The position numbers were made by a program, and so were the translations under genes. This document shows positions 2,890 to 56,846 of a stretch of 64,000 nucleotides of DNA, one piece after another. Numbering within the stretch: position 1 is the first letter of the stretch; each line of letters begins with the position of its first letter. Location: IMG/VR virus record IMGVR_UViG_2671180676_000004, positions 2,122-66,121 of that record. The stretch is one strand, 5' to 3'. The stretch is from a virus. Its lineage: Duplodnaviria; Heunggongvirae; Uroviricota; Caudoviricetes. Below the pieces are notes generated by a model, which was not told the DNA's origin, searched no databases, and saw only the letters and a program-made list of their open reading frames with translations.

Positions 2890-3366
2890 ATGAATACAGC
2901 CCTTTCCATCATCGACGATGCCAACTCAAACACTGCTATCGACTATCGGCAGGAAATGAACGTCATCCACGAAATTGTGGCCGAGTGCGAGAAAGAGATC
3001 GCCTTCATGTATCAGGTACACGACTTCGTTTATGGCGACGAACGCCACAACATGATTAATCGCCTGCTGAGACTAAACCATCGACCAGATGAAGATCGCT
3101 CGCGTTTAAATCGAGGTTGGTTGGATAAAGTCGATCTGGAATGGGTGAAACAGAATATTTGGGCCGAGTACTGGAGGAAGGTCACGGACATGACTAACGT
3201 TTTGCTGATCATGCCAGCTTCCCGTCGTGACGAGTGGTATGAGCAATTTATCGAGGGCAAGCAGGAAGTCATCAAAACTGACAGAACCGGCTATCAGATG
3301 AAGGTTAAAGAGTTCGTTGGTGTACCTGAGTTCAAAGTGGATACAGACATCCCTACGATGGCTTGA
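2890..3366 (+). CDS. hypothetical protein
   Basis: 158-aa ORF; convergent with hsdR, only about 58 bp between the stops. Confidence 0.4.
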   Translation: MNTALSIIDDANSNTAIDYRQEMNVIHEIVAECEKEIAFMYQVHDFVYGDERHNMINRLLRLNHRPDEDRSRLNRGWLDKVDLEWVKQNIWAEYWRKVTDMTNVLLIMPASRRDEWYEQFIEGKQEVIKTDRTGYQMKVKEFVGVPEFKVDTDIPTMA

Positions 3367-3424
3367 TCTGACAGCTATCTGCAAATTGCACAGATATCTG
3401 CCAGATCTGGTTCAGATTAATACA

Positions 3425-6400
3425 CTATATCTGCCCACCTACTCCTTTGAACTTTTCAATAAACGTGACGATTTTCTGGAAAACCGTCTGTTTTTTCGTT
3501 TTATATTGCGGGTTTAACGGACTAAGTTTTGGTAATGTCTCGTTTAATTCTGTGCCATTTTCGGTGGCGTATTCGCGTTTTAAAGACGTGCGAATATAGC
3601 GTTTCGCCGCCTCTTCATTGAGATTTTCTTCTTTAATCAACGCTTCTGCTTCACGTAGCTGTTCGTGTTGAGCAAAGGTAAAGAACGCGTCAATGATGCT
3701 GGCTTTGTCTGGTAAATCATCCAGGTTCGTTTGCTGAATAAAATCGACCACCAGGCCCTCTTTAGCACGGTTCCCTAGGCTTGAACGAATTAAGCGTTTG
3801 ACCTCTTCGATCATTTCGCCCTTGCCTTTATTTTGTCTGTTGTGTTCGAAAATCAGTCCAAGGATATAATCCAGGTTTATTTCCTGAGACTTCAGCAAAT
3901 CGACCTCAAAAACTACGTCATCCCAGTCAGTGGTTGATTTCTCTTTTTTCTCAGCTTCTTTCTCACGGCGCTGCCAGTCGCGAATATCGTTATAGGCAGA
4001 ACGATAATCCTGAATCTTGCGATCAGCAGGGAGACGAATTGTTTGCAATTCAGCGAACTTTTCATCATCCACATAATGTTCTGCTTTGAATTTTTCTACC
4101 GCAACAGGATCGCTAAGATCGATTTGTTGCAGGGCTTTTAGCGTGGCAAATTCATCATAGTTTTGCAGGATGTTCTCGGCACGCAGGTATTCGCCAAACA
4201 GTTTAACGAAGTCTTTCTTCTCTTTTTCACTTTCAATACTGGCAGGGTCAGGGAACCGTTGTTCCAGTTCTGAAACTACTGCCATAAAGCCGCGTTTAGC
4301 TTCACCTGTAGCAGCATCAGTAAAGCCTTCCATATACTCTGCATAACTCTTTTCTAACACTACATTTTTGGTGTTTTTGTCACCAAACAGCGTTATGGCA
4401 TCGATGGTTGAGCGTTCCAGATCGCGGAAAGTGACGATATTACCGAAGGTTTTAGTCGCGTCATAAATGCGGTTGGTACGGGAAAATGCCTGCATCAGGC
4501 CGTGAAAACGCAAGTTTTTATCGACGAATAGCGTGTTTAATGTTGGAGCATCGAAGCCGGTTAAAAACATCCCCACGACGATTAACAAGTCAACATCCTG
4601 ATTTTTAACCCGCTGAGCCAGGTCCCGATAGTAGTTCTGAAAACCCTTGCTATCAGTGCTGAAATTCATTTGAAAATGGTCGTTATACTCACGAATTGCA
4701 GCGTCCAGAAACTCTTTAGCACTGCTGTCCATTGCACTGGTATCAAAAGATTCATCGGATATTTCACCAATGGCATTTTGTTCTTCATTAGCGGCAAAGG
4801 AGAAGATTGTCGCAACACGCAGTGGTTTATAGGTAGCAGATTTATTAGCTGCTTCCTCTTGTAACCGTTTAAACGTCGCGTAATAGGCTTTCGCGGCATC
4901 CACGCTGCTCACTGCCAACATAGCATTAAAACCTTTTGAGCCAGGGAAGGTACGGTGGGTTTTCTGGCGGAAATTATTCAGAATATATTGCGTGATTTCC
5001 TGAATACGCATGGGATGAAGAAACGCCTGCTGATTTTCAGCCGCACTCAGTTTTTTCTCGTCAGTTTCTGTCTCTAAAGACTTAAACTGTGGCCGCACAT
5101 CGTTGTAGTCCACCTTGAATTTGAGCACTTTTTCGTCACGAATCGCATCGGTAATTACATACGAATGCAATTCACGACCAAATACGCTGGCGGTTGTTTC
5201 TGAGCCTAAGGCGTTTTCCGGGAAAATAGGGGTGCCGGTAAAACCAAACTGATAATAACGTTTGAATTTCTTCTTCAGGTTTTTCTGCGCTTCTCCAAAC
5301 TGGCTGCGGTGGCATTCATCAAATATAAACACCACTTGCTGATTATATACAGGCAGGTCGCTTTCTGCTTTCATCAGGTTATTGAGTTTCTGAATAGTAG
5401 TGACGATAATTTTGTTATCGTCCTTATCCAGATTTCGTTTAAGGCCTGCGGTATTTTCCGAGCCGTTGACGCTGTCTGGCGAAAAACGCTGATATTCCTT
5501 CATGGTCTGGTAATCGAGGTCTTTCCTGTCGACCACAAAGAAGACTTTATCAATAAAGTCCAGCTCTGTTGCCAGACGCGCGGCTTTAAAGCTGGTGAGG
5601 GTTTTACCAGAACCGGTAGTGTGCCAGATATACCCACCGCTTTCCGGTTTTGACCAGTTCTTCGCTGTAAAGGAACTCTTAATTTTCCACAGAATGCGCT
5701 CGGTGGCGGCAATCTGGTACGGTCGCATCACCAGTAGCGTCTGACTACTGTCAAAAACGCTGTAGTTCACCAGAACATTCAGCAGAGTATGTTTCTGGAA
5801 AAAGGTAGCGGTAAAGTCTTTGAGGTCTTTAATCAGCGTGTTGTCTGATTTCGCCCAATTCATGGTGAAGTCAAAACTGTTTTTATCGCGCTTTGTGGTG
5901 TTGGCAAAATAACGGGTATCAGTGCCGTTGGAAATGACGAACAGCTGCAGATACTTAAACAGGGAATTTTCGCTGTTAAAACTCTCTTTACTGTAACGAT
6001 GTATCTGGTTGAAAGCCTCACGAATCGCCACCCCGCGTTTTTTTAGTTCGATTTGCACCAGCGGTAAACCATTAACCAGGATCGTGACGTCATAACGGTT
6101 AGCATGAGAACCCGTCTGTTCAAACTGCTGGATAATCTGCACCTTATTGCGCATGAGATTCTTTTTATCTATCAAATAGATGTTCTCAAGTCGCCCGTCG
6201 TCAAAAATAAAGTCGCAGATATAGTCGATATGGATTTTACGGGTTTTATCCAGAATACCATCGCTGGGGTTGTCCAGATACTGCTCCGTGAAGCGCCGCC
6301 ACTCGCTGTCATTAAACATCACACCATTGAGGCTCTGAAGCTGTTCCCGAACATTGGACAGCATTGCCGACTGTGATTTTACGGAAATAAATTCATAACC

Positions 6401-6541
6401 CTGATTCCGCAGGTCCTGAATCAGTTCACGTTCCAGGTCCGATTCGCTCTGGTAGCTGTCGCTTGTTTGCTCAGCTTTGATGTACTTATCAAGGACGATA
6501 AAGTTATTGGATTCAGCAATGGTGTGTGTTTGATGAGTCAT
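3425..6541 (-). CDS. hsdR: type I restriction enzyme R subunit (type IC, EcoR124I-like)
   Basis: 1038-aa ORF; SF2 helicase motifs (TGSGKT Walker A, DECH box); last gene of minus-strand M-S-R order; length typical of type IC HsdR. Confidence 0.9.
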
Positions 6542-6663
6542 AGCGCATCCTTTGTGCCGCCTGGCAAGAGCCGGAAGGGCGTTAAGAGTGACTTCCGGCG
6601 CGTAAAAAAATAGTCTATATACTGACCGGGTGTTAAGGTGGCCCGATCGGTAGCAATGGTCAA

Positions 6664-7902
6664 TTAATTACTGACAGTTTCAGGTTTCGGGAAACTGAAC
6701 AGTAAATCACGGTAGTATTCGTATTGTTTCTGGCGCAACTCGATTTCACGCGGGAGACCTTCGGTGATGGAGTTGGTCAGGGTGTCGAATTTATCGAGCA
6801 GAGCAGATATTCGCTCTTGTTTCTGTTTATCAGGCAATGGCACTGGTAATGTTTTTATAATATCTGCATTCAAGTTACTGACCGACCCGCTATTGATTTT
6901 ACTTTCCCAATAATTTTTCACCTTTTTTGATGAAAGATAGTGATACAGATAATCAGCATTTAATTTTTCACCAAAATTGCTGATTGATGCCCATCCATCA
7001 TGGATAGCTCCGGTTATCCTTAAAATATATGGTCTGCCAAAGCTCATAGAGTTAGAAATGACGAAATCACCGGGGTTCAAGATTCGCGATTTTTGGGCAC
7101 CCTCTGCAGTTATTTTTTGTAAGGTTTTGTCAATGTATTTAGAGCCGGGGATAGTATCTCCGATTTTAATCCATGGGATACCATTTCCTTGTTCAGTAAG
7201 ATAATTAACAATTGGCCTGGGGGATGCCCCACGTTGTATTTTGGCTACTTCTCCCAATGCCTTCCACTCAACCTCACCCTCTTTAAAACTCAGCAACTGG
7301 TCGCGATAGTAGTTGTACTGTTTTTTACGCATGTTAAGCTCAGCGGTAAGCTCAGCGGTAAGTGCAGTAAACTTATCCAGAATCCGAACAATTTCAGACT
7401 GGATGGCAAGGGATTTTCCCGGGGCGCTGGGACAAGGGATGGGTATTTGATAGTTTAAAATTGCATCTTTACTGCCTCGAGGCATCTTTGCCCCTTTAGC
7501 GTGCTGCATACTGTAAGAAAAAAATGAATCCGACGATAATGCATAGTAGAGATATTCTGGACTAATAATTTTTTTACAGTCTGCTAAAATGCGTATAGCA
7601 AGGACATCACCACTGCACCCGCCATTATTCTCCGCCATCCAAACTTTCTTTAAATATGGGCGAATATTACCTAAAAGAATATCACCTGGCTCATAGGCAG
7701 TTAAACGTGCCGTATTAGGCTGATAGGTGGCGTCAATGCGACCGCCTTTATCAGCAAGGAGATTATCAACGCCAACGAATGAAGTGGCATCAAGTTTATC
7801 AGCATCAACTTTGGTTGTTGAATACCCGGCGATATCGCCCACTGCTTTCCACTCAACCTCAACCCCATCCAGCAATTTTTCCAGATAACTCAACTCGCTC
7901 AT
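6664..7902 (-). CDS. hsdS: type I restriction-modification specificity subunit (type IC)
   Basis: 412 aa; two target-recognition domains separated by conserved central region containing TAELTAEL and followed by conserved C-terminal region ending [13 protein letters not shown]; start overlaps hsdM stop. Confidence 0.85.
7337..7360. repeat. 12-bp tandem duplication (2 copies) encoding TAEL-TAEL in hsdS central region
   Basis: AGCTCAGCGGTA repeated at 7337-7348 and 7349-7360. Confidence 0.85.
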
Positions 7903-9461
7903 TTCTGCACCTCGCAGCCTTCAATTTCAGCCACAATCGCATCAATATCTTTACGCAACTGGTCGATTTTGCTGACCGTGGTTTTCAGCTCTGCATTCAA
8001 CTCAGCGATATCGATAATTTCGCGAGTATCTTTCACTTCAACATAGCTGCTCACCGACAGGTTATAGTCATTAGCAACAACAGTCTCAAACGCAACAGAT
8101 TTCGCCAGATGAGCAACATCTTCCTTGCTGGCAAATACCTGCATAATTTTTTCTATATGGGCATCGGTCAGAATGTTGTTGTTAGTCTCTTTTTTGAACA
8201 GTTCGCTGGCATCAATAAACTGAACTTTGGTATCCGTTTTATGTTTAGACAGCACCAGAATATTGACGGCAATGGTGGTGCCAAAGAACAGGTTCGGTGC
8301 CAGTGAAATCACGGTTTCGACATAGTTATTGTCAACCAGATACTGACGGATTTTCTGCTCCGCGCCGCCACGGTAAAAAATGCCCGGGAAGCAGACAATC
8401 GCAGCACGACCTTTGGCAGAAAGATAGTTCAGCGCATGTAATACAAACGCAAAGTCAGCTTTGGATTTGGGGGCCAGAACGCCAGCCGGGGCAAAACGTT
8501 CATCGTTAATCAGCGTCGGGTCATCGCTGCCAATCCATTTCACCGAATACGGCGGGTTAGAAACGATGGCATCAAACGGTTTTTCATCTCTGAAGTGCGG
8601 CTCAGTCAGCGTATTGCCCAGCTTGATATCAAACTTGTCGTAGTTGATGTTGTGCAAAAACATGTTCATACGCGCCAGGTTATAGGTCGTATGGTTGATC
8701 TCCTGACCGAAAAAGCCTTCTTCGATGATGTGGTCATCGAACTGCTTTTTCGCCTGCAACAACAGCGAACCGGAACCTGCTGCCGGGTCGTAGATTTTGT
8801 TAACGTGGGTCTGGCCGTGCATTGCCAATTGTGCAATCAGCTTAGAGACGTGCTGCGGTGTAAAGAACTCGCCGCCTGACTTACCAGCATTCGCGGCATA
8901 GTTAGAAATCAGGAACTCATAGGCATCGCCGAACAGGTCAATCTGATGTTCGTTGAAGTCACCAAGTTTTAACCCTTCAACCCCTTTCAGAACCGCAGCC
9001 AGGCGGGCATTTTTATCTTTAACGGTGTTACCCAGGCGGTTACTGGTGGTATCGAAATCAGCAAACAAACCTTTGATGTCAGCTTCTGAAGGATAACCGT
9101 AAGCAGAACTTTCGATAGCAACGAAGATGCTGTTTAAATCTGCGTTCAGTCTGTCATTGGTATTTGCTTTCGCCGCTACGTTGCAGAAAAGCTGACTGGG
9201 GTAGATGAAGTAGCCTTTAGTTTTGATGGCATCGTCTTTAATGTCATCAGTAATTACGCTGTCATCCAGTTTCGCATAACAGATACTGTCATCACCGGCT
9301 TCAATATAGCTGGAAAAATTTTCGCTGATAAAACGGTAGAAAAGTGCGCCCAGAACGTATTGCTTAAAATCCCATCCATCGACCGAACCCCTGACATCGT
9401 TAGCAATTTGCCAGATTTGACGATGAAGCTCTGCACGTTGTTGAATACTTGTCATTTTCAT
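7899..9461 (-). CDS. hsdM: type I restriction-modification DNA methyltransferase subunit
   Basis: 520 aa; N6-adenine methyltransferase motifs (NPPY at the catalytic site, AdoMet-binding DPAAGSGS); first gene of operon. Confidence 0.9.
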
Positions 9462-11375: not shown

Positions 11376-12476
11376 TCACACTGCGCGGAATGCGATCTCG
11401 CCAGGTATTACTTCGCCTTGCCAATACATTTGGGCAGCAACGCGATCTGCGAGGTCACGATAAATAGCCGTAAATTCGCTATCTGGACGACTAATAACGG
11501 TTGGTGTTCCGTTATCCAGATCTTCACGAAGAGAGATATGAAGTGGCATTTGGCCTAACAACTGCGTGTTGTATTTCTCGGCCAGTTTCTGTGCGCCACC
11601 GGTGCCAAAAATTGGCTCGTGATGACCGCAGTTACTGCAAATATGCACACTCATGTTTTCGACGATACCCAGTACCGGCACTTCGACTTTTTCGAACATC
11701 ACAATGCCTTTCTTCGCATCGATCAGCGCGATGTCTTGCGGCGTAGTTACCACAACCGCACCAGTTACAGGAATGTTCTGCGCCAGCGTCAACTGAATAT
11801 CACCAGTGCCCGGCGGCATATCGAGAACGAGATAGTCCAGATCAGGCCATAGAGTTTCCTGCAACATCTGCATCAGCGCCTTGCTGGCCATCGGTCCACG
11901 CCACACCATTGCATTGTCGTCGGTGACCAGATAACCAATAGAGTTGGTTGCCAGGCCATGAGACATGATAGGTGCCATGTGAGTACCGTCCGGTGAGGTT
12001 GGACGTTGGTTTTCCGCGCCCAGCATGGTTGGAATTGATGGACCATAGATATCGGCATCCAAAATACCAACTTTCGCACCTTCAGCAGCCAACGCCAGTG
12101 CCAGGTTTACCGCCGTGGAGGATTTACCCACGCCGCCCTTGCCTGAGCTGACGGCGATAATGTTCTTAACGCCATTAATGCCTGGTTGGTTTTTGACGCG
12201 CTTAAGCGTGGCAATGTTGTACGACAGCTTCCAGTCAATAGCCTTTGCGCCAGTGATACGGAGCAGATCACCACTACATTGCTCTTTCAGGTCTTCAAAA
12301 GGCTTATTCCACACGAAAGGCATGATTAGTTCGACATGCAGTGTGTCATCCATCAACGCAACATGGTGTAACGCTTTAAGCGTAGTCAGGTTGTGTTTCA
12401 GGGTTGGGTGCTGAAAATTAGCCAGCGTACCGGCTACCATTGCTCTCAGGGCATCCGGCGATTTGGACTCGCTCAT
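11376..12476 (-). CDS. apbC: Fe-S cluster carrier ATPase ApbC/Mrp
   Basis: 366 aa; P-loop GKGGVGKS; CxxC pair; divergent from metG as in Escherichia chromosomes. Confidence 0.9.
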   Translation of the reverse strand: MSESKSPDALRAMVAGTLANFQHPTLKHNLTTLKALHHVALMDDTLHVELIMPFVWNKPFEDLKEQCSGDLLRITGAKAIDWKLSYNIATLKRVKNQPGINGVKNIIAVSSGKGGVGKSSTAVNLALALAAEGAKVGILDADIYGPSIPTMLGAENQRPTSPDGTHMAPIMSHGLATNSIGYLVTDDNAMVWRGPMASKALMQMLQETLWPDLDYLVLDMPPGTGDIQLTLAQNIPVTGAVVVTTPQDIALIDAKKGIVMFEKVEVPVLGIVENMSVHICSNCGHHEPIFGTGGAQKLAEKYNTQLLGQMPLHISLREDLDNGTPTVISRPDSEFTAIYRDLADRVAAQMYWQGEVIPGEIAFRAV

Positions 12477-12633
12477 CCCGTCTCCTTTATTTTAATTTGC
12501 GCAATTGTCGCCTTGTAGTGTACTCCAGCTACGACATTTAATCATTTATGAGAAATGCTGTTATCACATGGCAGACATAAGGCCATTTTGTTACTATCAA
12601 GCCCCTTTTCACTACAAAGAAGTAATGCCTACT

Positions 12634-14667
12634 ATGACCCAAGTCGCGAAGAAAATTCTGGTGACGTGCGCGCTGCCGTACGCTAACGGCTCAATCCACC
12701 TCGGCCATATGCTGGAGCACATCCAGGCTGATGTCTGGGTTCGTTACCAGCGAATGCGCGGCCACGAGGTTAATTTCATCTGTGCCGACGATGCCCACGG
12801 TACGCCGATCATGCTGAAAGCACAGCAGCTTGGTATCACACCGGAGCAGATGATTGGCGAAATGAGTCAGGAACACCAGACTGATTTCGCAGGCTTTAAC
12901 ATCAGCTATGACAACTATCACTCGACGCACAGCGAAGAGAACCGTCAGTTGTCTGAGCTTATCTATACTCGCCTGAAAGAGAACGGTTTTATTAAAAACC
13001 GCACTATCTCTCAGTTGTACGACCCGGAAAAAGGCATGTTCCTGCCGGATCGTTTTGTAAAAGGCACCTGCCCGAAATGTAAAGCGCCAGATCAATACGG
13101 CGATAACTGTGAAGTCTGCGGCGCAACATATAGCCCGACTGAATTGATCGAGCCGAAATCGGTGGTTTCTGGCGCTACCCCGGTAATGCGTGATTCCGAA
13201 CACTTCTTCTTTGATCTACCTTCTTTCAGCGAAATGTTGCAGGCATGGACCCGCAGCGGCGCGTTGCAGGAGCAGGTGGCGAACAAAATGCAGGAATGGT
13301 TTGAATCCGGCCTGCAACAGTGGGATATATCCCGCGATGCGCCTTACTTCGGTTTTGAAATTCCGAACGCGCCGGGCAAATATTTCTACGTCTGGCTGGA
13401 CGCGCCGATTGGCTACATGGGTTCCTTCAAGAATCTGTGCGACAAGCGCGGCGATACCACCAGCTTCGATGAATACTGGAAGAAAGACTCCACCGCCGAG
13501 CTGTACCACTTCATCGGTAAAGATATTGTTTACTTCCACAGCCTGTTCTGGCCTGCCATGCTGGAAGGCAGCAACTTCCGCAAGCCGACCAACCTGTTTG
13601 TTCATGGCTATGTGACGGTGAACGGCGCGAAGATGTCCAAGTCTCGCGGCACCTTTATTAAAGCCAGCACCTGGCTGAATCATTTTGACGCTGACAGCCT
13701 GCGTTACTACTACACTGCGAAACTCTCTTCGCGTATTGATGATATCGATCTCAACCTGGAGGATTTCGTTCAGCGTGTGAATGCCGATATCGTTAACAAA
13801 GTGGTTAACCTGGCGTCCCGTAACGCTGGCTTTATCAATAAGCGTTTTGACGGTGTGCTGGCAGGCGAACTGGCTGACCCGCAACTGTATAAAACCTTCA
13901 CTGATGCTGCTGAAGTGATTGGTGAAGCATGGGAAAGCCGCGAATTTGGTAAAGCTATCCGTGAAATCATGGCATTGGCTGACCTGGCTAACCGCTATGT
14001 CGATGAACAGGCTCCGTGGGTGGTGGCGAAGCAGGAAGGACGCGATGCCGATCTGCAGGCGATTTGCTCTATGGGCATTAACCTGTTCCGCGTGCTGATG
14101 ACGTACCTGAAGCCGGTACTGCCGAAACTGACTGAACGTGCAGAAGCATTCCTGAATACAGAACTGACCTGGGATGGTATCCAGCAACCGCTGCTGGGCC
14201 ATAAAGTGAATCCGTTCAAGGCACTGTATAACCGCATCGATATGAAGCAGGTTGAAGCACTGGTGGAAGCATCCAAAGAAGAAGTGAAAGCCACAGCCGC
14301 ACCGGTAACTGGCCCACTGGCTGACGACCCGATTCAGGAAACTATCACCTTTGACGACTTCGCCAAAGTTGACCTGCGCGTGGCGCTGATTGAAAACGCA
14401 GAGTTTGTAGAAGGTTCTGACAAACTGCTTCGCCTGACGCTGGATCTCGGTGGTGAAAAGCGTAATGTCTTCTCAGGCATCCGTTCCGCTTATCCAGATC
14501 CACAGGCACTGATTGGTCGTCACACCATTATGGTGGCTAACCTGGCACCACGTAAAATGCGCTTCGGTATCTCTGAAGGCATGGTGATGGCTGCTGGCCC
14601 CGGCGGGAAAGATATCTTCCTGTTAAGCCCGGATGCTGGTGCTAAACCTGGCCACCAGGTTAAGTAA
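12634..14667 (+). CDS. metG: methionine--tRNA ligase
   Basis: 677 aa from ATG 12634 ([26 protein letters not shown]); HIGH-type and KMSKS motifs; zinc knuckle CPKC...CEVC; C-terminal tRNA-binding domain; intrinsic terminator at 14690-14713. Confidence 0.95.
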
Positions 14668-15502: not shown

Positions 15503-16072
15503 ATGGATGTGATGGAAACCCAGAACCAACAAACAAAACCTCTGAATAACATTTATGCGTGGATTCTAGCGTTCATGCCTTTCTTCTTTGGAGTATCGCC
15601 GGAAGAGTATACCAATTACGCTATTATAATTGGGGGTGTAACTACCATCGGTTTGTTAGTAGCTGACAGAATGGCTCTATCGGAGTCTGGCTGTGAACCA
15701 CCTTCAATTCTATGGGGGGTATTCCTCCTGCCTGTCTATCTCTGGAAGCGCGCGACTATTACAAAAGGCAGCAGAGTGCCATTTATCATAATCGTTGCGT
15801 CGCTGGCTTGGGTTATCTTCATCGGCATCCCACACAAGGACGAGGTTGCTCTTGAAGAAGCAGCCTGCCCTCTCGTGACAACTATTCTGAAAGAGAATAA
15901 CGGTTCGACTGCACCAAAATGTATGAAGGTGACAATAGAGGACAAGGTGACGGATAAGTTCTATAGAGCAACGGCTACACTAGACAATGGTAATGACATT
16001 AACATTACTCTGGAACTTACCGGCGACAGGAACTTCTACGTCCGTGTTCCAAATGTTTATCTGAACAACTAA
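15503..16072 (+). CDS. integral membrane protein
   Basis: 189 aa with 3-4 predicted hydrophobic helices. Confidence 0.4.
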   Translation: MDVMETQNQQTKPLNNIYAWILAFMPFFFGVSPEEYTNYAIIIGGVTTIGLLVADRMALSESGCEPPSILWGVFLLPVYLWKRATITKGSRVPFIIIVASLAWVIFIGIPHKDEVALEEAACPLVTTILKENNGSTAPKCMKVTIEDKVTDKFYRATATLDNGNDINITLELTGDRNFYVRVPNVYLNN

Positions 16073-16189
16073 CGGTTGCAACTCATTGATAATGGCGGTC
16101 ACAATTTGATTCTTTTCTATAAGAATCCGTTGATCGCCACTACTCCCCTTCCATACCCGCAATCACATCCTTAAATATCAATAAGTTAT

Positions 16190-16990
16190 AGTTGTTTATA
16201 CAATCAAGAAAACAACTGAATAACAGATCAACGAAACATCAACGCTTTCACCCGATTTGGTCTAAAAAATTGACGTTTTCACACATCACTGCTTATACCC
16301 GTAATTCTACGCAGCAGACAGCGCCACAGCGTCCAATTTTCACCACAGACGACCCAACACACTACCAACAAAAACACACGCTCAAAATCGTTCCCGTTGC
16401 GTTACATAACCATATAAACAACTTATTTCAGGCATAACAAAACAACTAAATAACACATATGCCATTCCCAAAACAACCAACCTCTTTATGGCAGGCTACC
16501 GAAAAGACCCACCTCTTCTTCCCAGGCTACCGGACAACCAACCTAACTTTCACAGGCAATCCGAAAACATTCATACGCGCGATACCCACGACACGCCATT
16601 ACCCAAACAGCGAAGAAACATCAGAATCACTGAAACCCCAACGAAGCCTGTAACCGCAAGGTTTCTCTCAATCCCAAAAGACACGAAACATAACAATCAC
16701 GGGAAACGCCATTACCCAATACACGAATAACTACAAAAGCCCTTCACGCACTCCAGACAAACAACTCAAACACAATAACGAAAGGAATCGCCCACCTGCC
16801 ATTACTCCATACACGGAGAAGAACAATCACCAAAACGACGAGAACACCCCATAGAAGAACCACCGCAAAACGAACGAAACCATTTACACCGACAGAGAGA
16901 ACAACACGCCCAATTCACCAACAGAAATAGTCGCCGTATAGAACGTTCTGGAAGGAGTGAGCATTAACGCCTATAGAGAGGTTGAGACAG
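16190..16990. repeat. strand-asymmetric A/C-rich non-coding region with degenerate repeats
   Basis: Plus strand almost devoid of G/T runs; recurring units (GCCATTACCCAA..ACA at about 16596, 16709, 16798; CAGGCTACCG at about 16490, 16525); only low-complexity ORFs. Confidence 0.5.
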
Positions 16991-17141
16991 ATAAAACACG
17001 AAGAAAACACAACATGTATAGCGAAGAAGCCAGGTATGTATAAGTGGGGAGGGAAGGAGGGGTGTCGCCTCCTTTTTCGTATTTATTCAACTCCTGATTT
17101 TATCCCCCGTAACACCCCTACGGTCAGCCTTCGGTCCATAC

Positions 17142-17285
17142 AGGGAAAAGGTTGCATCCCGCTACAGAAACGGCTGGGTTGCCTTCGGGGAACGGCTGGA
17201 GGTTTTCAGGGAAACGGTCGAGTTGCCTGTGTGGATTTCGGGAAAAGGCTCGATGCCGGTTCAGGAACGGCGGCGTACCGGTATA
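17142..17285. repeat. iteron-like direct repeat array (about six units of 21-23 bp, core GGGAAACGG)
   Basis: cagGGAAAAGGttgc / cagAAACGGctgg / cgGGGAACGGctgg / cagGGAAACGGtcg / cgGGAAAAGGctcg / cAGGAACGGcgg in head-to-tail arrangement. Confidence 0.55.
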
Positions 17286-17608
17286 GCGTGAGGGAGAGTT
17301 GCGGCTACCCACCTGTAATGTGCGGGAAGAAGAGAGGCGCTCACGTGCAGGCGAACTTACTTACCGCTGGATTCCCTCTGAATGCCCAGCTACAGCGTAA
17401 TTGTGCCAGACAGCCAACGGGTCACAATCGATTTCAGTAGGTTTTCGGGGAGAGGATTATTCTGCCCACCAGCCACCTTCGGCCACTAAATCAGAATAAT
17501 GTAAAAAGTGTACTCGATACTGAACCTGAAAACTCACTGCCAAAACAACATTCACCGGAATAAAATCCTTTTTCGCCTGTGCGTTATTGCGATAATAACA
17601 CCAACGAG

Positions 17609-17623
17609 AAAACAATTTGTTTA
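17609..17623. promoter_or_regulatory. palindromic operator-like site
   Basis: AAAACAA-T-TTGTTTA upstream of ATG 17635. Confidence 0.5.
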
Positions 17624-17634
17624 AGGATTGCTTT

Positions 17635-17964: not shown

Positions 17965-18092
17965 CCCCAACCAAAGCCAGCAATGCTGGCTTAATTTCTC
18001 TATAGCCGCAGGGAGGAACCTGCATATCGATCATGCACCTGATCATTATGCTTTGTAGCCGTTTTCTTACTGGTATTATTTACGCCATTGAG

Positions 18093-18107
18093 AAAACAAG
18101 TTGTTTA
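18093..18107. promoter_or_regulatory. palindromic operator-like site
   Basis: AAAACAA-G-TTGTTTA upstream of ATG 18118. Confidence 0.5.
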
Positions 18108-18117
18108 CGGAGTTGTG

Positions 18118-19589: not shown

Positions 19590-19625
19590 TTATTAAGGCC
19601 ATCAGCATTGATGGCCTTAAATGAC

Positions 19626-19700
19626 CATCCTGTTTCCCGCAGGCTAAAAACACCAACCTCTTACCTCCAGGCAACCGACAAACCCACCTGTTCCCGTCCG
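19626..19700. repeat. inverted-orientation copies of the GGGAAAC iteron core plus CAGGC-ACCGA element
   Basis: cctGTTTCCCgcagg and cctGTTCCCgtccgg (reverse complement of iteron core); segment AACCAACCTCTT..CAGGC.ACCGA..CCCACCT shared with 16470-16510. Confidence 0.4.
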
Positions 19701-19759
19701 GCTACCGCAACTTTCCACTTTGACGCCTTATTCGTACAACGATAATTAACACCAATAAG

Positions 19760-19774
19760 AAAACAATTTGTTAT
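19760..19774. promoter_or_regulatory. palindromic operator-like site
   Basis: AAAACAA-T-TTGTTAT upstream of ATG 19794. Confidence 0.45.
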
Positions 19775-19793
19775 TTACGATAAGGAATTAATC

Positions 19794-20324: not shown

Positions 20325-20412
20325 GCAGGGAAATTTTCAGAAACGGCGAGGAACGTATTCATGAGCCGACGGGGAACGGCCAGGATTTTTTCGGGAAACG
20401 GCTGCATTCGCC
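20325..20412. repeat. second iteron-like array (three to four units, core GGGAAACGG)
   Basis: cagGGAAAtttt / cagAAACGGcgagg / cgGGGAACGGccagg / cGGGAAACGGctgc. Confidence 0.5.
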
Positions 20413-20863
20413 TTTATGTAGAAAAAACATCGGGAAGCTGGTGGAATCCAACCAGCGGTTGTCGGACAGGTGAGCGGGGAAAATTATGATGACTTTCGTC
20501 ACCTGAGACATCCAGATTTCTTTCGTAGCATAATTACATACGTGATTAAGTGGTGTGATTATGTGAAAAATCACGCGCACATAATACGCGAGCGGATACG
20601 GAACAAAACAAAATGCCGATCCGCGCCGACAAATAAACGCGGATCATAAAGCAAGACTAAAAGCCAATGATTAACCATACTCTATAGCGCAATATAACGC
20701 GTTTTAAGCGCGTTAATGTGTTAAGTAATGGGTATGTACTGGTAAGGATATAAAAGCGCGTCTATGGCGTTATTTTGGCGCTTATTTTTATGTTGTTGGA
20801 GTGAGTTAAAGACAATAAAAAACGCGCTAATGATGGCGCGTTATGGTGGGAGTATTGGAAACG

Positions 20864-20897
20864 AAAAAAGCGCCCATAGTGGGCGCTCGATTTTATT
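20864..20897. terminator. bidirectional terminator-like hairpin
   Basis: AAAAAA-GCGCCCA-tag-TGGGCGC-tcga-TTTTATTT; same stem reappears inverted at 21364-21382. Confidence 0.55.
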
Positions 20898-21123
20898 TGT
20901 GTAAACTGATTTTAAATCCCATTTCTACAAACGCTTTTAACATTAAAAATATATCAGCGTCGTTCACGTCTGCTTTTTTTCGCTCCTGGTCGCTCAATAA
21001 GTCAATTTTGCGCGTCGTTTCATCTATAAGCTCGACTGCGCGCCCAGCGTAACCAGCGATCCCAGCGATGCGATTAACATAATATTCATTATGGACGTTA
21101 ACGCCAGCGATAAGAACAAACAT
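20893..21123 (-). CDS. hypothetical protein (low-GC cassette)
   Basis: 76 aa; AAGGAG upstream on minus strand; bidirectional terminator-like hairpin 20864-20897 downstream. Confidence 0.35.
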   Translation of the reverse strand: MFVLIAGVNVHNEYYVNRIAGIAGYAGRAVELIDETTRKIDLLSDQERKKADVNDADIFLMLKAFVEMGFKISLHK

Positions 21124-21142
21124 GATTAAGCTCCTTAAAAAA

Positions 21143-21346
21143 TTAAATAGAATTTTGAAGTTTTCCGATTAATGCGCTTAAACGTAAGTATTCACGTTTA
21201 CGCTTGCAATCTCGCTTGCTGTTAAGCAAATCAGAAAACGTAAAATTTAATTGGTCGCGTTGCGCGATCAAATCATCGATTAATTCCAGTTTATAAGCGC
21301 GATACTTTGCGCGATATTCCGCGCGGATCTTGTCATAGCTGACCAT
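21143..21346 (-). CDS. hypothetical basic coiled-coil protein (low-GC cassette)
   Basis: Start taken at ATG 21346 (AAGGAG 8 bp upstream) rather than ORF-track start 21391, which would overlap hairpin 21364-21382. Confidence 0.35.
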   Translation of the reverse strand: MVSYDKIRAEYRAKYRAYKLELIDDLIAQRDQLNFTFSDLLNSKRDCKRKREYLRLSALIGKLQNSI

Positions 21347-21363
21347 TTTTAAAGCTCCTTTAA

Positions 21364-21382
21364 AGCGCCCACTATGGGCGCT
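21364..21382. terminator. hairpin with same stem as 20869-20887
   Basis: GCGCCCA-cta-TGGGCGC, downstream of minus-strand gene 21395-22045. Confidence 0.4.
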
Positions 21383-21394
21383 TGATTCCATTAA

Positions 21395-22045
21395 TTACGC
21401 TTTGAAAGCATCAGCTAAATAATTGTAGAAATCATTTTTAATGAAGCGATATTGCTGAGTACCAGCTTTCGCACTCCCAGCTCCTTTGACTTTTTCAACA
21501 AGTCCAAGACGTTCGCAAAGATTGATCAACTGGTTGGCTTGAGTATAGCCAGCGTCCAATTTAATTTCACACGCTTTTTTAGCTTCATTCATTAAATCGA
21601 AAACAGCGCCATTGGTGAACGTGTCGATCTCGTCGTTAATCATATCGATTAAAGCGAATACACGAGATCCAGACATATCAGCGATGGAATAAACGCATTT
21701 ACCAGATTTAATTGATTTAACCAGATAAACCAGTTTTTCCAGAGAATAACTATTAGTCATTGCATCACGAAAAAATACTTCTGGCGCTTGTTTGCTTGCT
21801 TTAATCGCATAGTAGAAAACAGAGCATAATTTTTCGTCTTCTACTGCGTTTACGACGTTGTTGATGAAGTAAGCAAGTTTAGTGGTCGCAGCTTGCATAT
21901 TTGCTTTGTCTGCTTTAGTGTGCGTACCATTTTTATAATGTTCGTTATATGTTTGAGTTGCCAGATCTGCTTTTTCGCGCAGTTCATCGGATACAATGGA
22001 AGCAGCTTCAATGATGGATTTTTTAGAAATGATAATGTTAGCCAT
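21395..22045 (-). CDS. hypothetical protein with C-terminal winged-helix-like segment (possible DNA-binding / replication-initiator-like)
   Basis: 216 aa; AAGGA upstream; C-terminal LINLCERLGLVEKVKG resembles a winged-helix recognition element; low-GC segment. Confidence 0.35.
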   Translation of the reverse strand: MANIIISKKSIIEAASIVSDELREKADLATQTYNEHYKNGTHTKADKANMQAATTKLAYFINNVVNAVEDEKLCSVFYYAIKASKQAPEVFFRDAMTNSYSLEKLVYLVKSIKSGKCVYSIADMSGSRVFALIDMINDEIDTFTNGAVFDLMNEAKKACEIKLDAGYTQANQLINLCERLGLVEKVKGAGSAKAGTQQYRFIKNDFYNYLADAFKA

Positions 22046-22328
22046 GATAATTTTTCCTTATGTAAATTTAAAATTTATTGTCGTTAGCGTCTTCGCTTTC
22101 GACGAGTTCAATTATCGATACGCGAAAAAAGATTGCAAGTGTTTTTTTAAAATTTTTTGCAGGGATGAAAGTCCTAGAAATAAAAGCGAGATCGTCGAAG
22201 GTGTTCCCTAAATAAATAATCGATTCCGGCTTTCGACCTTATATATATTTAGATTATTTGATTTATAGATATAAAGAAGTGATGTGAAAAATAATAACCG
22301 GACTTAGCCGGTTATTAACCTTATAGAT

Positions 22329-22637
22329 TTATTGAACAGACTCTACAGCCTTACGATTGGTGTCAAATAGCGCATCAACGAACTGTGCCGATGACTCGCT
22401 AGATTCGCAATCCAACATTGCCCGTTCTTCATTTGCCACTTTCTTACACAGTTCCACATTCTCACCTATCGCTTTTCCTGCTTTTACGGCTGCCGAAAAT
22501 TGATACATGCAAACTGATACATTCTGAGACGTTGAGCACACGTCATTCATCAGCGACTGAATGACAGGCTTATAGTCCATTGCATTTGCCGCAACTGAGC
22601 AAAGTAAAAATAATGGTGGTAACAATATCGATTTCAT
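22329..22637 (-). CDS. secreted Cys-containing small protein
   Basis: 102 aa; N-terminal signal peptide (MKSILLPPLFLLCSVAANA); hairpin 22296-22320 downstream. Confidence 0.45.
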   Translation of the reverse strand: MKSILLPPLFLLCSVAANAMDYKPVIQSLMNDVCSTSQNVSVCMYQFSAAVKAGKAIGENVELCKKVANEERAMLDCESSESSAQFVDALFDTNRKAVESVQ

Positions 22638-22640: not shown

Positions 22641-23165
22641 TCAAAAAGGCAAAATTCGTTCAACCCAATCGAACAAAACAACTATTTTTCTACCGTTCTC
22701 GACACGTAGTGTAACCTGACAAGCATCTGCGCCTGCTGACACCCCCTCAATTTCACGGCCATCCGCCATGTACACCCTTATAGATTTGTTTGCTTTGTAG
22801 GCTTGGTTGCAAATTGCAAAAAAATCGCGGCGTGATGGCCGATTATCGACATAATCAGGGTGAACTGTTAGTCGACCTTTGAAATCGTGAGCGATACTGT
22901 CAACCACACCTGATTCAATTGTACTAATGCGTTCAAGTGGGAGCCTTATACGATTTTCTTTGTCAAAAGGGGCTGGGCAAAGGTCAACTTTGTTACGAGA
23001 TGGCATGAGGCCATAAACGTACATGCAAAACGCCTGGCCATCTTCGAGAGTGACCCTTACAGGAATTTGTTCTCTGCGCCAGAACATCAGTAGTTTTTCA
23101 ACGTTAGTGTAATCTCGCGGCCAGAGTTCAGCTTGGATACCGTAGGTAATATCTTTGGTTGTCAT
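22641..23165 (-). CDS. hypothetical protein
   Basis: Start taken at ATG 23165 (MTTKDITYG), 4 bp after lipoprotein gene stop; ORF-track start 23243 would overlap the upstream gene. Confidence 0.4.
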   Translation of the reverse strand: MTTKDITYGIQAELWPRDYTNVEKLLMFWRREQIPVRVTLEDGQAFCMYVYGLMPSRNKVDLCPAPFDKENRIRLPLERISTIESGVVDSIAHDFKGRLTVHPDYVDNRPSRRDFFAICNQAYKANKSIRVYMADGREIEGVSAGADACQVTLRVENGRKIVVLFDWVERILPF

Positions 23166-44415: not shown

Positions 44416-45114
44416 ATGGGAATTAAAGCTGATATTCAGAGCTTATCTCCCTCTGCACTCATTGAGTTGTTCGTACTGGATATGTCGAACACAACTTCAG
44501 GGGGGAAGCTATTCTTCCACGCCGGAACAAACGAACTGATGCAACCGGTCGTCTGGCAAGGGGTGACATACGAGCCGTGGCCAATCAAAGCATCAGGCTT
44601 TGACAAAACGGGCCAGGGAACGTTGCCACGTCCAAAAATTCAGGTATCGAACTTTGCCGGAACCGTCTCTGCGGAAGTTCAGGCGAACGACGATCTTGTT
44701 GGCTGCCGCATTATTCGCAAGATGACGCTGGCTCGCTTCCTCGATGCCGTTAATTTTAAAGACGGCAACCCAACAGCAGATCCAAACCAACATTTCCCGG
44801 ATGAAATGTGGTTTATCGAACAGAAAACTCTCGAAACTCATCAGGTTGTCGAGTTTGAATTGTCCAGTGTGTTCGATTTGATGGGGGTGCAACTGCCGTA
44901 TCGTCAGATCATTAAAAACACCTGCCCGTGGAAATACCGAGGGCCAGAATGCGGCTATACCGGTCCATATTTCGACAAAAATAACCAGCAGACGTCTATG
45001 TCTGGTGCGGATTACTGCACAAAACGTTATGACGCCTGTAATGCGCGTCGGAATTATTTTGCCGACGGTGTGATCCATTTTGGCGGATTTATTGGAGCTA
45101 CGCGGTATGGGTAA
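44416..45114 (+). CDS. minor tail protein (gpL-like)
   Basis: ATG 44416 with AAGGA upstream; conserved Cys cluster near C-terminus. Confidence 0.65.
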   Translation: MGIKADIQSLSPSALIELFVLDMSNTTSGGKLFFHAGTNELMQPVVWQGVTYEPWPIKASGFDKTGQGTLPRPKIQVSNFAGTVSAEVQANDDLVGCRIIRKMTLARFLDAVNFKDGNPTADPNQHFPDEMWFIEQKTLETHQVVEFELSSVFDLMGVQLPYRQIIKNTCPWKYRGPECGYTGPYFDKNNQQTSMSGADYCTKRYDACNARRNYFADGVIHFGGFIGATRYG

Positions 45115-45904
45115 TAAAGCAATCCCTGAGCTTGGCTCTGACGTTATGCAGCAAATCTATCTCTGCGCCATAAATCGCTACCCTAATGAAGCGTGTGGCT
45201 TTCTGGTTAGAACTAATGGCGACAAATATCGCTTTATGGAAGCGCGGAATGTTTCGGAGAACCCGCAGAACACTTTTGTAATGCACGTTGACGACATTAT
45301 GGCGGCAGAGGATGCGGGTGATGTTATCGCAATCTGGCATTCACATACTGATGAATCAGCAGAAGCATCTGATGCCGATCGTGCAGGCTGCGAAGCGACG
45401 GAAGTTCCGTGGATGATTCTGGCTATTCGCAAGAATGTTGAGGGAGATGCCCCTTTCCATTTTAGCGAGATGAATGTGATCACACCTGATGGTTTCGAAA
45501 TGCCATACCTGGGTAGACCGTATGTATTTGGCGTATTCGATTGCTGGATGTTGTGTCGGGACTATTTGAAGCGTGAGTTTAACGTCGAGCTTAACCCGAA
45601 CGCACACCTGCATATTCCATCGTGGTACACCGGCGATAACGACATTCTCGACCAGAACTACCGAAACGAAGGGTTGGTACGGCTTGCGCCTGGAACAGAG
45701 CCTCAACGTGGGGACGTCTTCTTTATTCAATACGGGAAAATGCCAGATCACTGCGCGGTTTATATCGGTGATGGAATGATTCTTCATCACCAGATCGACC
45801 GTCTTAGTTGTCGTGCTTATTACGGCGGAATGTATCAGAAACATACGACGCATCACTTGCGTCACAGAGACTTGCTCAAGGGAGATGAGACGTGTCTGAG
45901 TTAG
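45107..45904 (+). CDS. tail assembly protein (gpK-like; MPN/JAMM plus NlpC/P60-type domains)
   Basis: ATG 45107 overlapping previous stop; HSHTDESAEASDADR JAMM-like motif; Cys/His pair (FDCW...HH) in C-terminal half. Confidence 0.65.
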   Translation: MGNKAIPELGSDVMQQIYLCAINRYPNEACGFLVRTNGDKYRFMEARNVSENPQNTFVMHVDDIMAAEDAGDVIAIWHSHTDESAEASDADRAGCEATEVPWMILAIRKNVEGDAPFHFSEMNVITPDGFEMPYLGRPYVFGVFDCWMLCRDYLKREFNVELNPNAHLHIPSWYTGDNDILDQNYRNEGLVRLAPGTEPQRGDVFFIQYGKMPDHCAVYIGDGMILHHQIDRLSCRAYYGGMYQKHTTHHLRHRDLLKGDETCLS

Positions 45905-46485
45905 TTCATGTGCAGCTTGGCGGACCTATGGCTAAACATTTTGGTCGCCACTGGCATCTAAAGGTGCGCAATACAAAACAGGCTCTGGATTTAATTGAAG
46001 CCAACAAGCCTGGGTTTAAAGCATGGATGAAGCGCAATATCAAAACCTATGACAGTTACCACATCCAGATCACCAATAAACAGGGCCACAAGTGGTCTGT
46101 TGACGAAAGTGAATATCAGATGATGGGGCAGTCTGACAACATTGCCAAAATCCGCATTACACCTGTTCCGCGAGGAAGCGGTGGATCTGCTTTTGGGTGG
46201 TTTCAGACGGTAGTAGGGGCCGCTTTGTTGGTTGTATCGGCGGTAGTGATGCCTGCTTTAGCACCTCTCGGTTTGTCACTGATGATGGGCGGCATATCAC
46301 AAATCATATCGCCGCAAGCCACTAACGAAAGTGTGAGACAGGCAGATAACTCGAACTCTTATTATTTCGACGGCCCTCAAAATACAGAAAACCAGGGCAA
46401 CCCAGTACAACTTATCTATGGCGAGGAAATTCTGGTTGGCTCACAGGTTGTGAGTTCTTCAATCACGATTGACCAGCTAATGTAA
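45892..46485 (+). CDS. tail assembly protein (gpI-like)
   Basis: 197 aa with hydrophobic C-terminal half; position before J. Confidence 0.6.
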   Translation: MSELVHVQLGGPMAKHFGRHWHLKVRNTKQALDLIEANKPGFKAWMKRNIKTYDSYHIQITNKQGHKWSVDESEYQMMGQSDNIAKIRITPVPRGSGGSAFGWFQTVVGAALLVVSAVVMPALAPLGLSLMMGGISQIISPQATNESVRQADNSNSYYFDGPQNTENQGNPVQLIYGEEILVGSQVVSSSITIDQLM

Positions 46486-46496
46486 ACAAGGATTTT

Positions 46497-51230: not shown

Positions 51231-51323
51231 TGGTGGAAAAAAAATTTTATATCGGTAAAAATAGGTAAGTATTTACTTAATGGCGGACAAGGATAACCCG
51301 CCAAATCAAGGAGCATATTCAAC

Positions 51324-55613: not shown

Positions 55614-55803
55614 TTTAGACATTATTTATATGGCTGTGAGGTTTAAAATGCGATCTCACAGCCGCAATCATAGGGATATATTAGTGAGTTACTAGATACG
55701 AATTTGAACAGCCGTTAAACGGTATATACATAGATAGGTAAGTATATACCTATAATTGAAAGGAGAAGTGTGATATAAATCCGCCATCCCGATTTGACTT
55801 TTC

Positions 55804-56139
55804 ATGGAGGAAAACATGTCGAACGAGATGGCGGGCGTTACAACAGAGCAAGTTGAGCGTATAGCCGCGATCGTTGCTCGGGAGGTTGTTGGCAAATTAG
55901 GTAAAGAGCTACGTGAAGAAATTGGCCAGGAGGTCAATGATCAGCTGAAAACCTACTTTGGTGATATGACCCCGGCGCAACATAGTATTCAACACTCCAA
56001 TCTGGACAAACTCCTTAACCGGTTAGATTCCATCTCAAGTGGGTTCTTTGGCGGCATTGTTTCTAAAATAACGTCGTTCATTATTACCGCACTGCTTTTG
56101 GGGTTAGCCGCGTATGGCGTAAAAAGTGGACTGCAATAA
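55804..56139 (+). CDS. membrane protein, holin candidate
   Basis: 111 aa with single C-terminal transmembrane helix; first gene of lysis-type cassette. Confidence 0.3.
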   Translation: MEENMSNEMAGVTTEQVERIAAIVAREVVGKLGKELREEIGQEVNDQLKTYFGDMTPAQHSIQHSNLDKLLNRLDSISSGFFGGIVSKITSFIITALLLGLAAYGVKSGLQ

Positions 56140-56152
56140 CAGGAGATCAAGG

Positions 56153-56845: not shown

Positions 56846-56846
56846 T

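Follow-up and report, generated by a model that had tools for sequence, protein, structure and literature searches.

A core gene followed by a probable slot for exchangeable small genes in an SSU5-type phage-plasmid of Escherichia coli

The question raised by the locus described here is whether three small AT-rich genes, which lie beside two copies of the same hairpin, form a mobile cassette, and what such genes might do. They are found in a stretch of 64,000 nt (the window in what follows; positions 2,122–66,121 of the IMG/VR virus record IMGVR_UViG_2671180676_000004). The source element is a phage-plasmid of E. coli of the SSU5/pHCM2/pMT1 type: the locus is 97–100% identical to SSU5-like phage-plasmids of this species, including the Escherichia phages CMS-2020a, PhiR41_1 and Cyrano, and 100% identical to plasmid pUTAK-6-1 (111,466 bp). 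A preliminary description, made from the sequence alone, had placed three open reading frames (ORFs) on the minus strand; they match the PGAP calls on pUTAK-6-1 and we call them g1, g2 and g3. Our answer is that they are probably not a mobile three-gene cassette. We favour instead a self-contained transcription unit, made of the core gene g1 and of a slot in which small genes are swapped. What we see in the locus is the usual mosaicism of phages, and neither a replication module nor a module for defence. Its main features, in the direction of transcription, are:

21395..22045, minus strand: g1, core gene, 216 aa, phrog_1513, with a predicted N-terminal helical bundle and a predicted C-terminal winged-helix domain.
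21355..21383, minus strand: internal hairpin copy, stem GCGCCCA/TGGGCGC, loop UAG (mRNA sense), exact 17-mer GCGCCCACTATGGGCGC at 21365-21381, dG -16.0 kcal/mol.
21143..21346, minus strand: g2, accessory gene, 67 aa, basic (pI 9.7), hydrophilic, predicted to be helical, phrog_6145.
20893..21123, minus strand: g3, accessory gene, 76 aa, phrog_1585.
20857..20888, minus strand: terminal hairpin copy, loop CUA (mRNA sense), exact 17-mer GCGCCCATAGTGGGCGC at 20870-20886, followed by UUUUUUCGUUUCC, dG -15.5 kcal/mol.

The identity of the two stems, already reported, is exact. There are only two copies in the window (0.17 are expected and 2 out of 100 shuffled sequences reach two) and only these two, both at the g1–g3 locus, on the whole 111-kb plasmid. 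A dispersed REP-like repeat was considered for this hairpin and rejected, as two copies in 111 kb are both found at one locus. The hairpins had been thought to bound all three genes; they bracket only g2 and g3, while g1 lies upstream of the internal copy.

The three genes also differ in their distribution. A tblastn survey of the 72,556 plasmids in PLSDB found g1 in 815 records, from Klebsiella, Escherichia, Enterobacter, Yersinia pestis pMT1, Salmonella and Citrobacter, as compared with 517 for g2 and 374 for the g3 family. It is apparent that g1 is a core gene of the backbone and that variation is confined to the small genes. The name of accessory cassette thus fits g2 and g3 and does not fit g1. 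The g3 family has two clades, ~85–100% and ~51% identical to the copy in the window. The content of the slot varies with the host genus: Klebsiella and Enterobacter are the main hosts of g2, Escherichia is that of g3, and g3b is the clade found in Yersinia and Salmonella.

Architecture was studied in 83 loci fetched through the g1 protein. They replace a first set of loci, which could not be used to judge invariance because it was biased by the hairpin pattern used in the search. The exact 17-mer is found 12–17 nt past the g1 stop codon in all but one of these loci (82/83), the exception being L172 with one substitution in the stem (TGGGAGC). When HP stands for the hairpin, the arrangements are:

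g1-HP-g2-HP: 25/83 loci.
g1-HP-g3-HP: 16/83 loci.
g1-HP-g2-g3-HP, the form of the window: 15/83 loci.
g1-HP alone, an empty slot: 10/83 loci.
g1-HP-g3b-HP: 5/83 loci.
g1-HP-g2b-HP-HP: 4/83 loci.
g1-HP-g2-g3b-HP: 3/83 loci.
g1-HP-g3b-HP-g3-HP: 2/83 loci.
Other arrangements: 3/83 loci.

Comparison of relatives at this site had been proposed as a check on the cassette, and what it gives is a constant g1 with small genes which vary at the slot. Since g2 alone (25 loci), g3 alone (16) and both together (15) all occur, an obligate pair is ruled out. The minimal form is found in Buttiauxella (L129 and L108), with g1, one hairpin and TTTTTTCGTTTC. The design is kept in more distant relatives, although with other sequences. 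In a Klebsiella plasmid (g1 50% identical) three terminators stand in tandem, and the stem of the first one is shortened, AGCGCCA-GAAA-TGGCGCT. In Pectobacterium (g1 39% identical) g1 is followed by an unrelated terminator. A metagenomic relative, L215 (g1 ~30% identical), has g1, a hairpin, an ORF for a hydrophobic protein of 29 aa and a second hairpin; both hairpins differ from those of the window.

The sequences which follow the hairpins suggest what they may do. The terminal copy is followed by UUUUUU and would be the main intrinsic terminator of the operon; it is also terminator-like on the plus strand. The internal copy falls short of five U: it is followed by UUU and then by AAAGGAG, which contains the AAGGAG ribosome-binding site of g2. 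With only UUU it can be read as an attenuated terminator, probably a crippled one which attenuates transcription. The same difference is found throughout the 83 loci: terminal copies are always followed by T5–7 (TTTTTTCG in 58 loci), and internal copies by TAGTTTTA, TTTAAAGG or TTTTAAGG, which run straight into the next ribosome-binding site. The stem is invariant among enterobacterial relatives, with 0.7–1.3 bits per site in its flanks. Behind the terminal copy there is a further hairpin:

20811..20842, minus strand: second, back-up terminator (HP2, predicted), AACGCGC-CATCATTA-GCGCGTT followed by T6ATTGTC, dG -10.2 kcal/mol.

Its stem AACGCGCCA/TGGCGCGTT is conserved across relatives, and its tail TTTTTTATTGTC recurs at the second hairpin of L215. 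In the window copy a G-to-A change trims the stem to 7 bp.

Intrinsic terminators are a familiar class, which includes tandem, bidirectional and leaky attenuator forms. The hairpins described here resemble them by the GC-rich stem of 7–9 bp, the 3-nt loop, the U-tract, the position 12–17 nt past a stop codon and the back-up terminators which follow. They differ in that internal copies have only 3–4 U, and in a stem which is invariant over large distances where compensatory drift would be expected.

A peculiarity of these hairpins is the orientation of their loops. In mRNA sense the loop of the first hairpin type is CTA in 129 copies and the reverse complement TAG in 17; both are found at both positions, in at least two g1 clades. 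Since TAG and CTA differ at all three bases, inversion is far likelier than point mutation. The HP2 loops of relatives (L125–L214) contain three more reverse-complement pairs, TTGT/ACAA, ATGA/TCAT and TTGA/TCAA, which indicates that loop inversion is recurrent at these palindromes. Such inversion explains the opposite orientation previously ascribed to the two hairpins of the window: the 3-nt loop is indeed flipped, TAG against CTA, but the stems are not, as they form a perfect palindrome. Within the literature that we searched, no report of loop inversion in phage terminators was found. Small hairpin-loop inversions in non-coding DNA are well documented for chloroplast genomes, one reported example being that of Kelchner and Wendel (1996). 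There, as here, the loop enclosed by short perfect inverted repeats occurs in either orientation, recurrently among close relatives; the difference is that here the palindromes belong to the terminators of a phage-plasmid.

Upstream of g1 we find a control region, with the following elements:

22287..22317, minus strand: upstream intrinsic terminator (predicted), TAATAACCGGCTAAGTCCGGTTATTA followed by T5, dG -12.6 kcal/mol.
22236-22250, minus strand: conserved block AAATATATATAAGGT.
22195-22216, minus strand: conserved block TTTATTTAGGGAACACCTTCGA.
22168-22184, minus strand: conserved block TTTATTTCTAGGACTTT.
22108..22139, minus strand: predicted sigma-70-like promoter of g1, cTTGCAA, a 16-nt spacer and GATAAT, 9/12 match.
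22081..22104, minus strand: imperfect palindrome CGTCGAAAGCG-AAGA-CGCTAACGA, also rendered TCGAAAGCG-N4-CGCTAACGA, at the predicted transcription start.

The upstream terminator closes the preceding unit, formed by a fljA-like gene and a gene for a secreted protein of 102 aa. It is kept in all relatives despite differences in the gene upstream, and it would shield g1 from upstream transcription. Next comes a stretch of 240 bp with 31% GC, immediately upstream of g1, which contains the conserved blocks; their centres lie between about -70 and -140 relative to the predicted start. We aligned this region in 10 relatives, the most distant one being Pectobacterium. Both promoter hexamers are conserved in the alignment; the blocks are conserved down to Pectobacterium and are still recognisable in L215. 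The palindrome is also conserved down to Pectobacterium, with an outermost pair which shifts symmetrically (G..C vs A..T); like the blocks, it is kept in relatives with a g1 30–39% identical. It may serve as the operator of a DNA-binding protein which acts as a dimer, or else form a 5' RNA stem. It is found in a single copy on the plasmid and its half-sites elsewhere are at the level of chance (4 found, 2.9 expected). The blocks are unique in the window, and blocks and palindrome are unique on the 111-kb plasmid; hence they are not operators of a multi-target repressor, and a role of the blocks as operators of a global phage repressor was rejected. The simplest reading is that g1 may regulate itself at the palindrome of its own start site. 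The sequence TTTATTTAGGGAACAC resembles a promoter of single-subunit phage RNA polymerases; this idea was rejected, with no such polymerase annotated on the plasmid.

These elements can be joined in the following model. On the evidence of the sequences, g1 is a backbone gene with its own promoter region, insulated upstream, and the 17-nt hairpin with T6 directly after the gene is its intrinsic terminator. In most relatives this terminator is duplicated, and the space between the copies forms a slot which takes zero to two exchangeable ORFs of small size (g2 and g3, or paralogues diverged from them); the unit is followed by one or two further terminators. Lacking promoters of their own, g2 and g3 would be made by read-through of the weakened internal hairpin and therefore be co-regulated with g1, at a lower level. 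In agreement with this, a scan of the 18–20 nt between the internal hairpin and the g2 start detected no promoter-like site. The contents of the slot would change through homologous or unequal recombination at the hairpin copies and neighbouring conserved sequence, and through loss of hairpins, while the loop of the perfect palindrome would invert readily and give rise to the different loop orientations. A dimer of g1 might act on the start-site palindrome, perhaps also on the upstream blocks. We hold the architecture and the mode of transcription with good confidence; the functions proposed for the proteins are only tentative.

Exchange at the slot is seen most clearly in L098 and L125. Their g1 is distant from that of the window (dS 0.84–0.97) while the adjacent g3 is close (dS only 0.13–0.14), so that g3 must have moved between backbones. 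In one comparison the terminal hairpin marks the very point at which identity falls. It is only one of several such boundaries in a region which is mosaic as a whole. The g2–g3 junction of the window reads TAA-TTTTTT-AAGGAG, with no hairpin between the genes; we infer that it may be a remnant of a form with three hairpins, such as L111, after loss of the middle one. The gene g2 can also be lost. In L128 (Kluyvera sichuanensis) it has a nonsense codon, CGT TAA TAT where relatives read CGT GAA TAT. This premature stop and the stem change in L172 are rare examples of decay in the slot.

Base composition might point to recent import. The segment is indeed AT-rich, with a GC content of 0.31–0.41 over 20550–22500 vs 0.463 for the window. 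When 49 genes are ranked from the lowest GC upwards, g1 comes second, g2 fourth and g3 seventh; in GC3 g1 is the lowest of all. Recent import is not the reason: g1 has a GC content of 0.38–0.41 across all relatives, including those with dS >1, and its low GC is therefore ancestral. All three genes are under purifying selection: dN/dS is mostly ~0.04–0.2, and only a few pairs reach values as high as 0.5. The values are 0.04–0.16 for g1, ~0.06 for g2 at high divergence and 0.05–0.48 for g3. A strong AAGGAG ribosome-binding site, assigned earlier to all three genes, is found in g2 and g3 but not in g1, which has TAAGGAAAAA (AAGGAA). A longer reading of g2 with 82 aa, from 21391, is not conserved.

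Expression in a lysogen is available for Cyrano, which has a g1 97% identical to that of the window and the layout g1-HP-g3-HP. In RNA-seq of E. coli LF82 lysogens (PMC9928086, supplementary table) the orthologue of g1, CYRAN_113, has 5.9 normalised counts and that of g3, CYRAN_112, has 5.0, at the detection floor. The prophage median is 9.8, capsid and terminase genes have 7–8 and the putative repressor 96; several toxin-antitoxin genes are above the level of the repressor. The unit of g1 and g3 is silent in lysogeny. Such silence in the plasmid state argues against roles in plasmid replication, maintenance, toxin-antitoxin function or constitutive defence, and it indicates that the unit probably acts in the lytic phase.

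No known family was recognised for the three proteins when the locus was first described, and this holds. Searches of Pfam, NCBIfam, PADLOC and PDB sequences with g1, g2 and g3, both as single sequences and as profiles, gave nothing above threshold; matches in PHROGs are limited to families of unknown function. A profile search for g1 in 1.84 billion representative proteins gave 23 representatives at E<=0.001, all from one small family. Thus g1 is an orphan family, and all matches of the three families are confined to contigs of SSU5-type elements. The label 'MIT family metal ion transporter' attached to phrog_6145 is clearly wrong; the sole family match of g2 is DUF6899, below threshold even with divergent members (best E 0.0095).

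The winged-helix C-terminus suspected in the largest protein does appear in its structure model. The predicted g1 has a single winged-helix domain, with a helix-turn-helix followed by a beta-hairpin wing, behind a distinct N-terminal helical domain of 115 residues which has no structural match. Foldseek against viral structures found no match at E<=0.001. The helix and wing, YTQANQLI..CERLGL, are the best conserved segment of g1 and persist in homologues with ~30% identity. The wing is basic, but the winged-helix half is acidic as a whole (pI 5.0), so that DNA binding by g1 is plausible, not assured. Winged-helix transcription factors such as Fur/PerR, ArsR and MarR are comparable in fold only: g1 has no membership in their sequence families and differs from them by the additional N-terminal domain and by the acidic winged-helix half. 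Most likely g1 is a dimeric winged-helix DNA-binding protein. For g3 the model has low confidence and is unstable, with a generic ferredoxin/ACT-like beta-alpha-beta-beta-alpha-beta fold. A possible role of g2 and g3, which we would not put higher than that, is as small optional effectors of the lytic phase which act in the takeover of the host or against its defences. A more complete picture is rather improbable: a swap slot for such lytic proteins, with g1 as a winged-helix autoregulator of a new type and the terminator palindrome doubling as a recombination boundary.

Several points weigh against the unit with a slot which we favour. The expression data come from a relative which has no g2 and only from non-induced cells; what they establish is that the unit is silent in lysogeny, and not that it is switched on in the lytic phase. 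Termination and read-through are deduced from sequence alone. The invariance of the stem, with no compensatory changes, exceeds what a terminator needs and is not accounted for. Other recombination breakpoints lie within g1 and g3, so the hairpin is not the sole junction. Finally, the unstable model of g3 supports no functional inference.

Among other explanations, the one which survives best is a dedicated anti-defence locus, in which g2, g3 and their paralogues would be defence inhibitors swapped according to the host, while g1 would be a regulator similar to Aca proteins, which shuts down a strong promoter. As in anti-CRISPR (Acr) and other anti-defence operons with Aca, a conserved gene of helix-turn-helix type lies beside orphan ORFs which are small and variable, and all are placed under a single promoter which is tightly controlled and has a unique palindromic site. 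The slot content varies by host genus, g3 has been swapped between diverged backbones and the unit is silent in lysogeny, all of which agrees with this proposal. However, the host pattern may merely track the phylogeny of the backbone, and the low dN/dS of g2 and g3 gives no sign of arms-race diversification. A nonsense mutation of g2 is tolerated in one relative, and the slot is empty in 10/83 loci. A regulator placed first and with 216 aa, much larger than usual, is atypical for Aca proteins, and the general family searches gave no sequence link to Aca or Acr families. We consider this explanation unlikely as a whole.

A lytic replication origin is somewhat less probable. Here g1 would bind the origin as an initiator which comes into play only upon induction, like RepL of P1, and the origin would correspond either to the AT-rich upstream blocks or to arrays of repeats found nearby (RGRAACGGC units or repeats of 30 nt). 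In its favour are the winged helix of g1 together with the silence in lysogeny, the 240 bp at 31% GC with deeply conserved blocks directly upstream of g1, and the RGRAACGGC arrays at 20339-20405 and, larger, at 17168-17275, with related repeats at the same position in distant relatives. The constant synteny of g1 with a UvsW-like DEAD-box helicase points in the same direction, and so does the presence of DnaE, a DnaB-like helicase and a ligase encoded by the element itself. On the other hand, g1 resembles no initiator, the upstream blocks are placed like activator or operator sites of a promoter, and there are no iterons within or beside g1, as the repeats adjoining the operon are arms of terminators. 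To our knowledge no experimental mapping of origins exists for these elements.

A related proposal, the replication-initiator module of the preliminary description, finds no support as an ordinary plasmid Rep system with iterons. A RepB-family initiator is encoded at record positions 12833-14047, ~70 kb from the locus, the orthologues of g1 and g3 are at the detection floor, and g1 has no match to Rep or initiator families in Pfam, NCBIfam or PDB sequences. Tandem direct repeats of 17–22 bp, as expected for iterons, were not found beside g1. The units at 20690-20880, which had been described as repeated GGCG(C)TTAT-type units, are real, but they are inverted hairpin arms: they come in strand-alternating pairs, which identifies them as arms of GC-rich terminator palindromes, flanked by a run of A and, on the opposite side, by a run of T, and not as iterons. 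The elements in this region are:

20696-20714 and 20754-20782: GC-rich palindromes, whose arms are the GGCG(C)TTAT units.
20683-20718: 10-bp-phased TWTARCGCGN units (GCGCGTTTTA in mRNA sense).
20765-20788: 12-nt unit with 2.1 copies, detected by TRF, the sole direct tandem repeat.

Folding of the minus-strand RNA over 20660-20900 gives z = -4.6. The number of copies of the 10-mer unit varies in relatives: two in pMT1 and four or five in Buttiauxella (L129, ~3330–3400).

Capture of genes directed by the hairpin is very improbable. The 17-nt palindrome would be the site of a recombinase or of a hairpin-binding transposase, and each ORF with its hairpin a cassette similar to those of integrons. 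The likeness is real: the ORFs appear promoterless in our scan, each additional ORF is accompanied by another identical hairpin, the arrays differ in length (forms with one, two and three hairpins exist), and the stem is invariant despite diverging flanks. But attC sites have 57–141 nt and an imperfect paired-box structure, while here we find a perfect palindrome of 17 nt which matches nothing in Rfam. There is neither integron integrase nor attI; the sole tyrosine recombinase of the plasmid is ~50 kb distant, beside the lysogeny regulator. The hairpin is found nowhere else on the plasmid and is missing between g2 and g3. Furthermore, within this family of elements g2 and g3 are restricted to the one locus, which means that there is no pool of cassettes. 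Duplication through unequal homologous recombination is a simpler account. A paper on integrons in phages makes no mention of the g1–g3 locus.

An accessory system of the lysogenic phase, either a toxin-antitoxin pair or a defence system formed by g2 and g3 with or without g1 on a recently acquired island, is hardly credible: the genes are small, adjacent and low in GC, and the plasmid does carry several toxin-antitoxin and defence modules elsewhere, but g2 and g3 occur apart, no family of g1–g3 is found in PADLOC at E<0.01 or matches toxin-antitoxin or defence entries in Pfam, the orthologues are silent in Cyrano lysogens in which toxin-antitoxin genes are expressed, and both the ancestral low GC of g1 and the confinement of the genes to one element family speak against an island.

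The unit with a slot which we favour is close to, but distinct from, the morons of phages. In the concept of Juhala, Hendrix and colleagues these are accessory genes which lambdoid phages carry between conserved genes and which each bring along a promoter and a terminator; they are typically expressed from the prophage. Like morons, g2 and g3 are present or absent at one fixed site in otherwise collinear relatives, a terminator hairpin follows the small genes and exchange takes place between diverged backbones. Unlike them, g2 and g3 have no promoter of their own according to the sequence scan, their base composition is like that of the neighbouring core gene, and the orthologue of g3 is silent in the prophage (5.0 vs a median of 9.8 in Cyrano, which has no g2). 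The terminator is also different, as it is copied from that of the upstream gene. This is the particular feature of the locus: the slot is built from copies of the terminator of the gene which precedes it. It is a neat case of how phage genomes may gain small genes while they do without additional promoters; what it represents is an extension of known mosaicism, not a system of a new kind. Phage-plasmids like SSU5, to which pMT1 of Y. pestis is related, occur commonly in clinical E. coli, Klebsiella, Enterobacter and Salmonella; very little work has been devoted to their regulation and lytic functions. A literature search by gene accession found no paper naming g1, g2 or g3.

The surroundings of the locus agree with the SSU5-type identification. 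On one flank there are the UvsW-like helicase, two ParB_N proteins, the terminase and structural genes; on the other flank a series of small hypothetical genes. No tRNAs were found, and Rfam gave nothing credible, either in the whole window at gathering thresholds or in the locus at permissive E-values.

Upstream of the g1 control region a gene at 22641-23165 (minus strand) codes for a homologue of FljA (Pfam Flag1_repress, E 1.5e-84, with a weak Hfq-like match). This homology explains why SSU5, pMT1 and Cyrano carry the labels 'repressor of phase-1 flagellin' and 'transcriptional regulator'; a misleading label is thus corrected, since 'repressor' belongs to this fljA-like neighbour. Three nt past its stop codon starts the gene for the 102-aa protein (22329-22637, minus strand), which has an N-terminus like a signal peptide and is missing from SSU5 and Cyrano.

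The RGRAACGGC units are iteron-like, with a spacing of 20–31 bp: five are found at 17168-17275 and three at 20339-20405, in arrays ~3.1 kb apart. The second array lies ~0.5 kb past the end of the operon, in a gap of 600 bp before convergent genes of the plus strand. Related repeats (GCCGTTTCCC, GGGAAAAC..TTCCC) are found at the same position in relatives with a g1 30–50% identical. These arrays could be a lytic origin or the sites of a regulator. A region of 1.56 kb, 16073-17634, has no annotated gene, and over 16001-17000 it has a GC skew of -0.35 and an AT skew of +0.31. It contains three tandem repeats of ~30 nt at 16470-16566 (AACCAACCTCTT..CAGGCTACCG), a family which appears again three times at 19618-19711.

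In the rest of the window, a complete type I restriction-modification system (hsdM, hsdS and hsdR), annotated on pUTAK-6-1, is found at ~3425–9455 and adjoins an S24 peptidase and a homologue of Pol III theta. At ~12300–14667 there are full-length homologues of metG (methionine-tRNA ligase) and apbC, housekeeping genes of chromosomal type, unusual as the cargo of such an element. In the tail and tail-fibre region (~45100–61400) 14 coding sequences of pUTAK-6-1 have no intact ORF in the window after transfer of coordinates; the two sequences must differ there by indels or replacements, although the surroundings of g1–g3 are identical. Finally, a repeat of 35 nt with the palindrome AAACAAnTTGTTT is found at 17593-17627, 18077-18111 and 19744-19778, just upstream of three small genes of the plus strand, and is probably a shared operator or promoter of this run of small genes.

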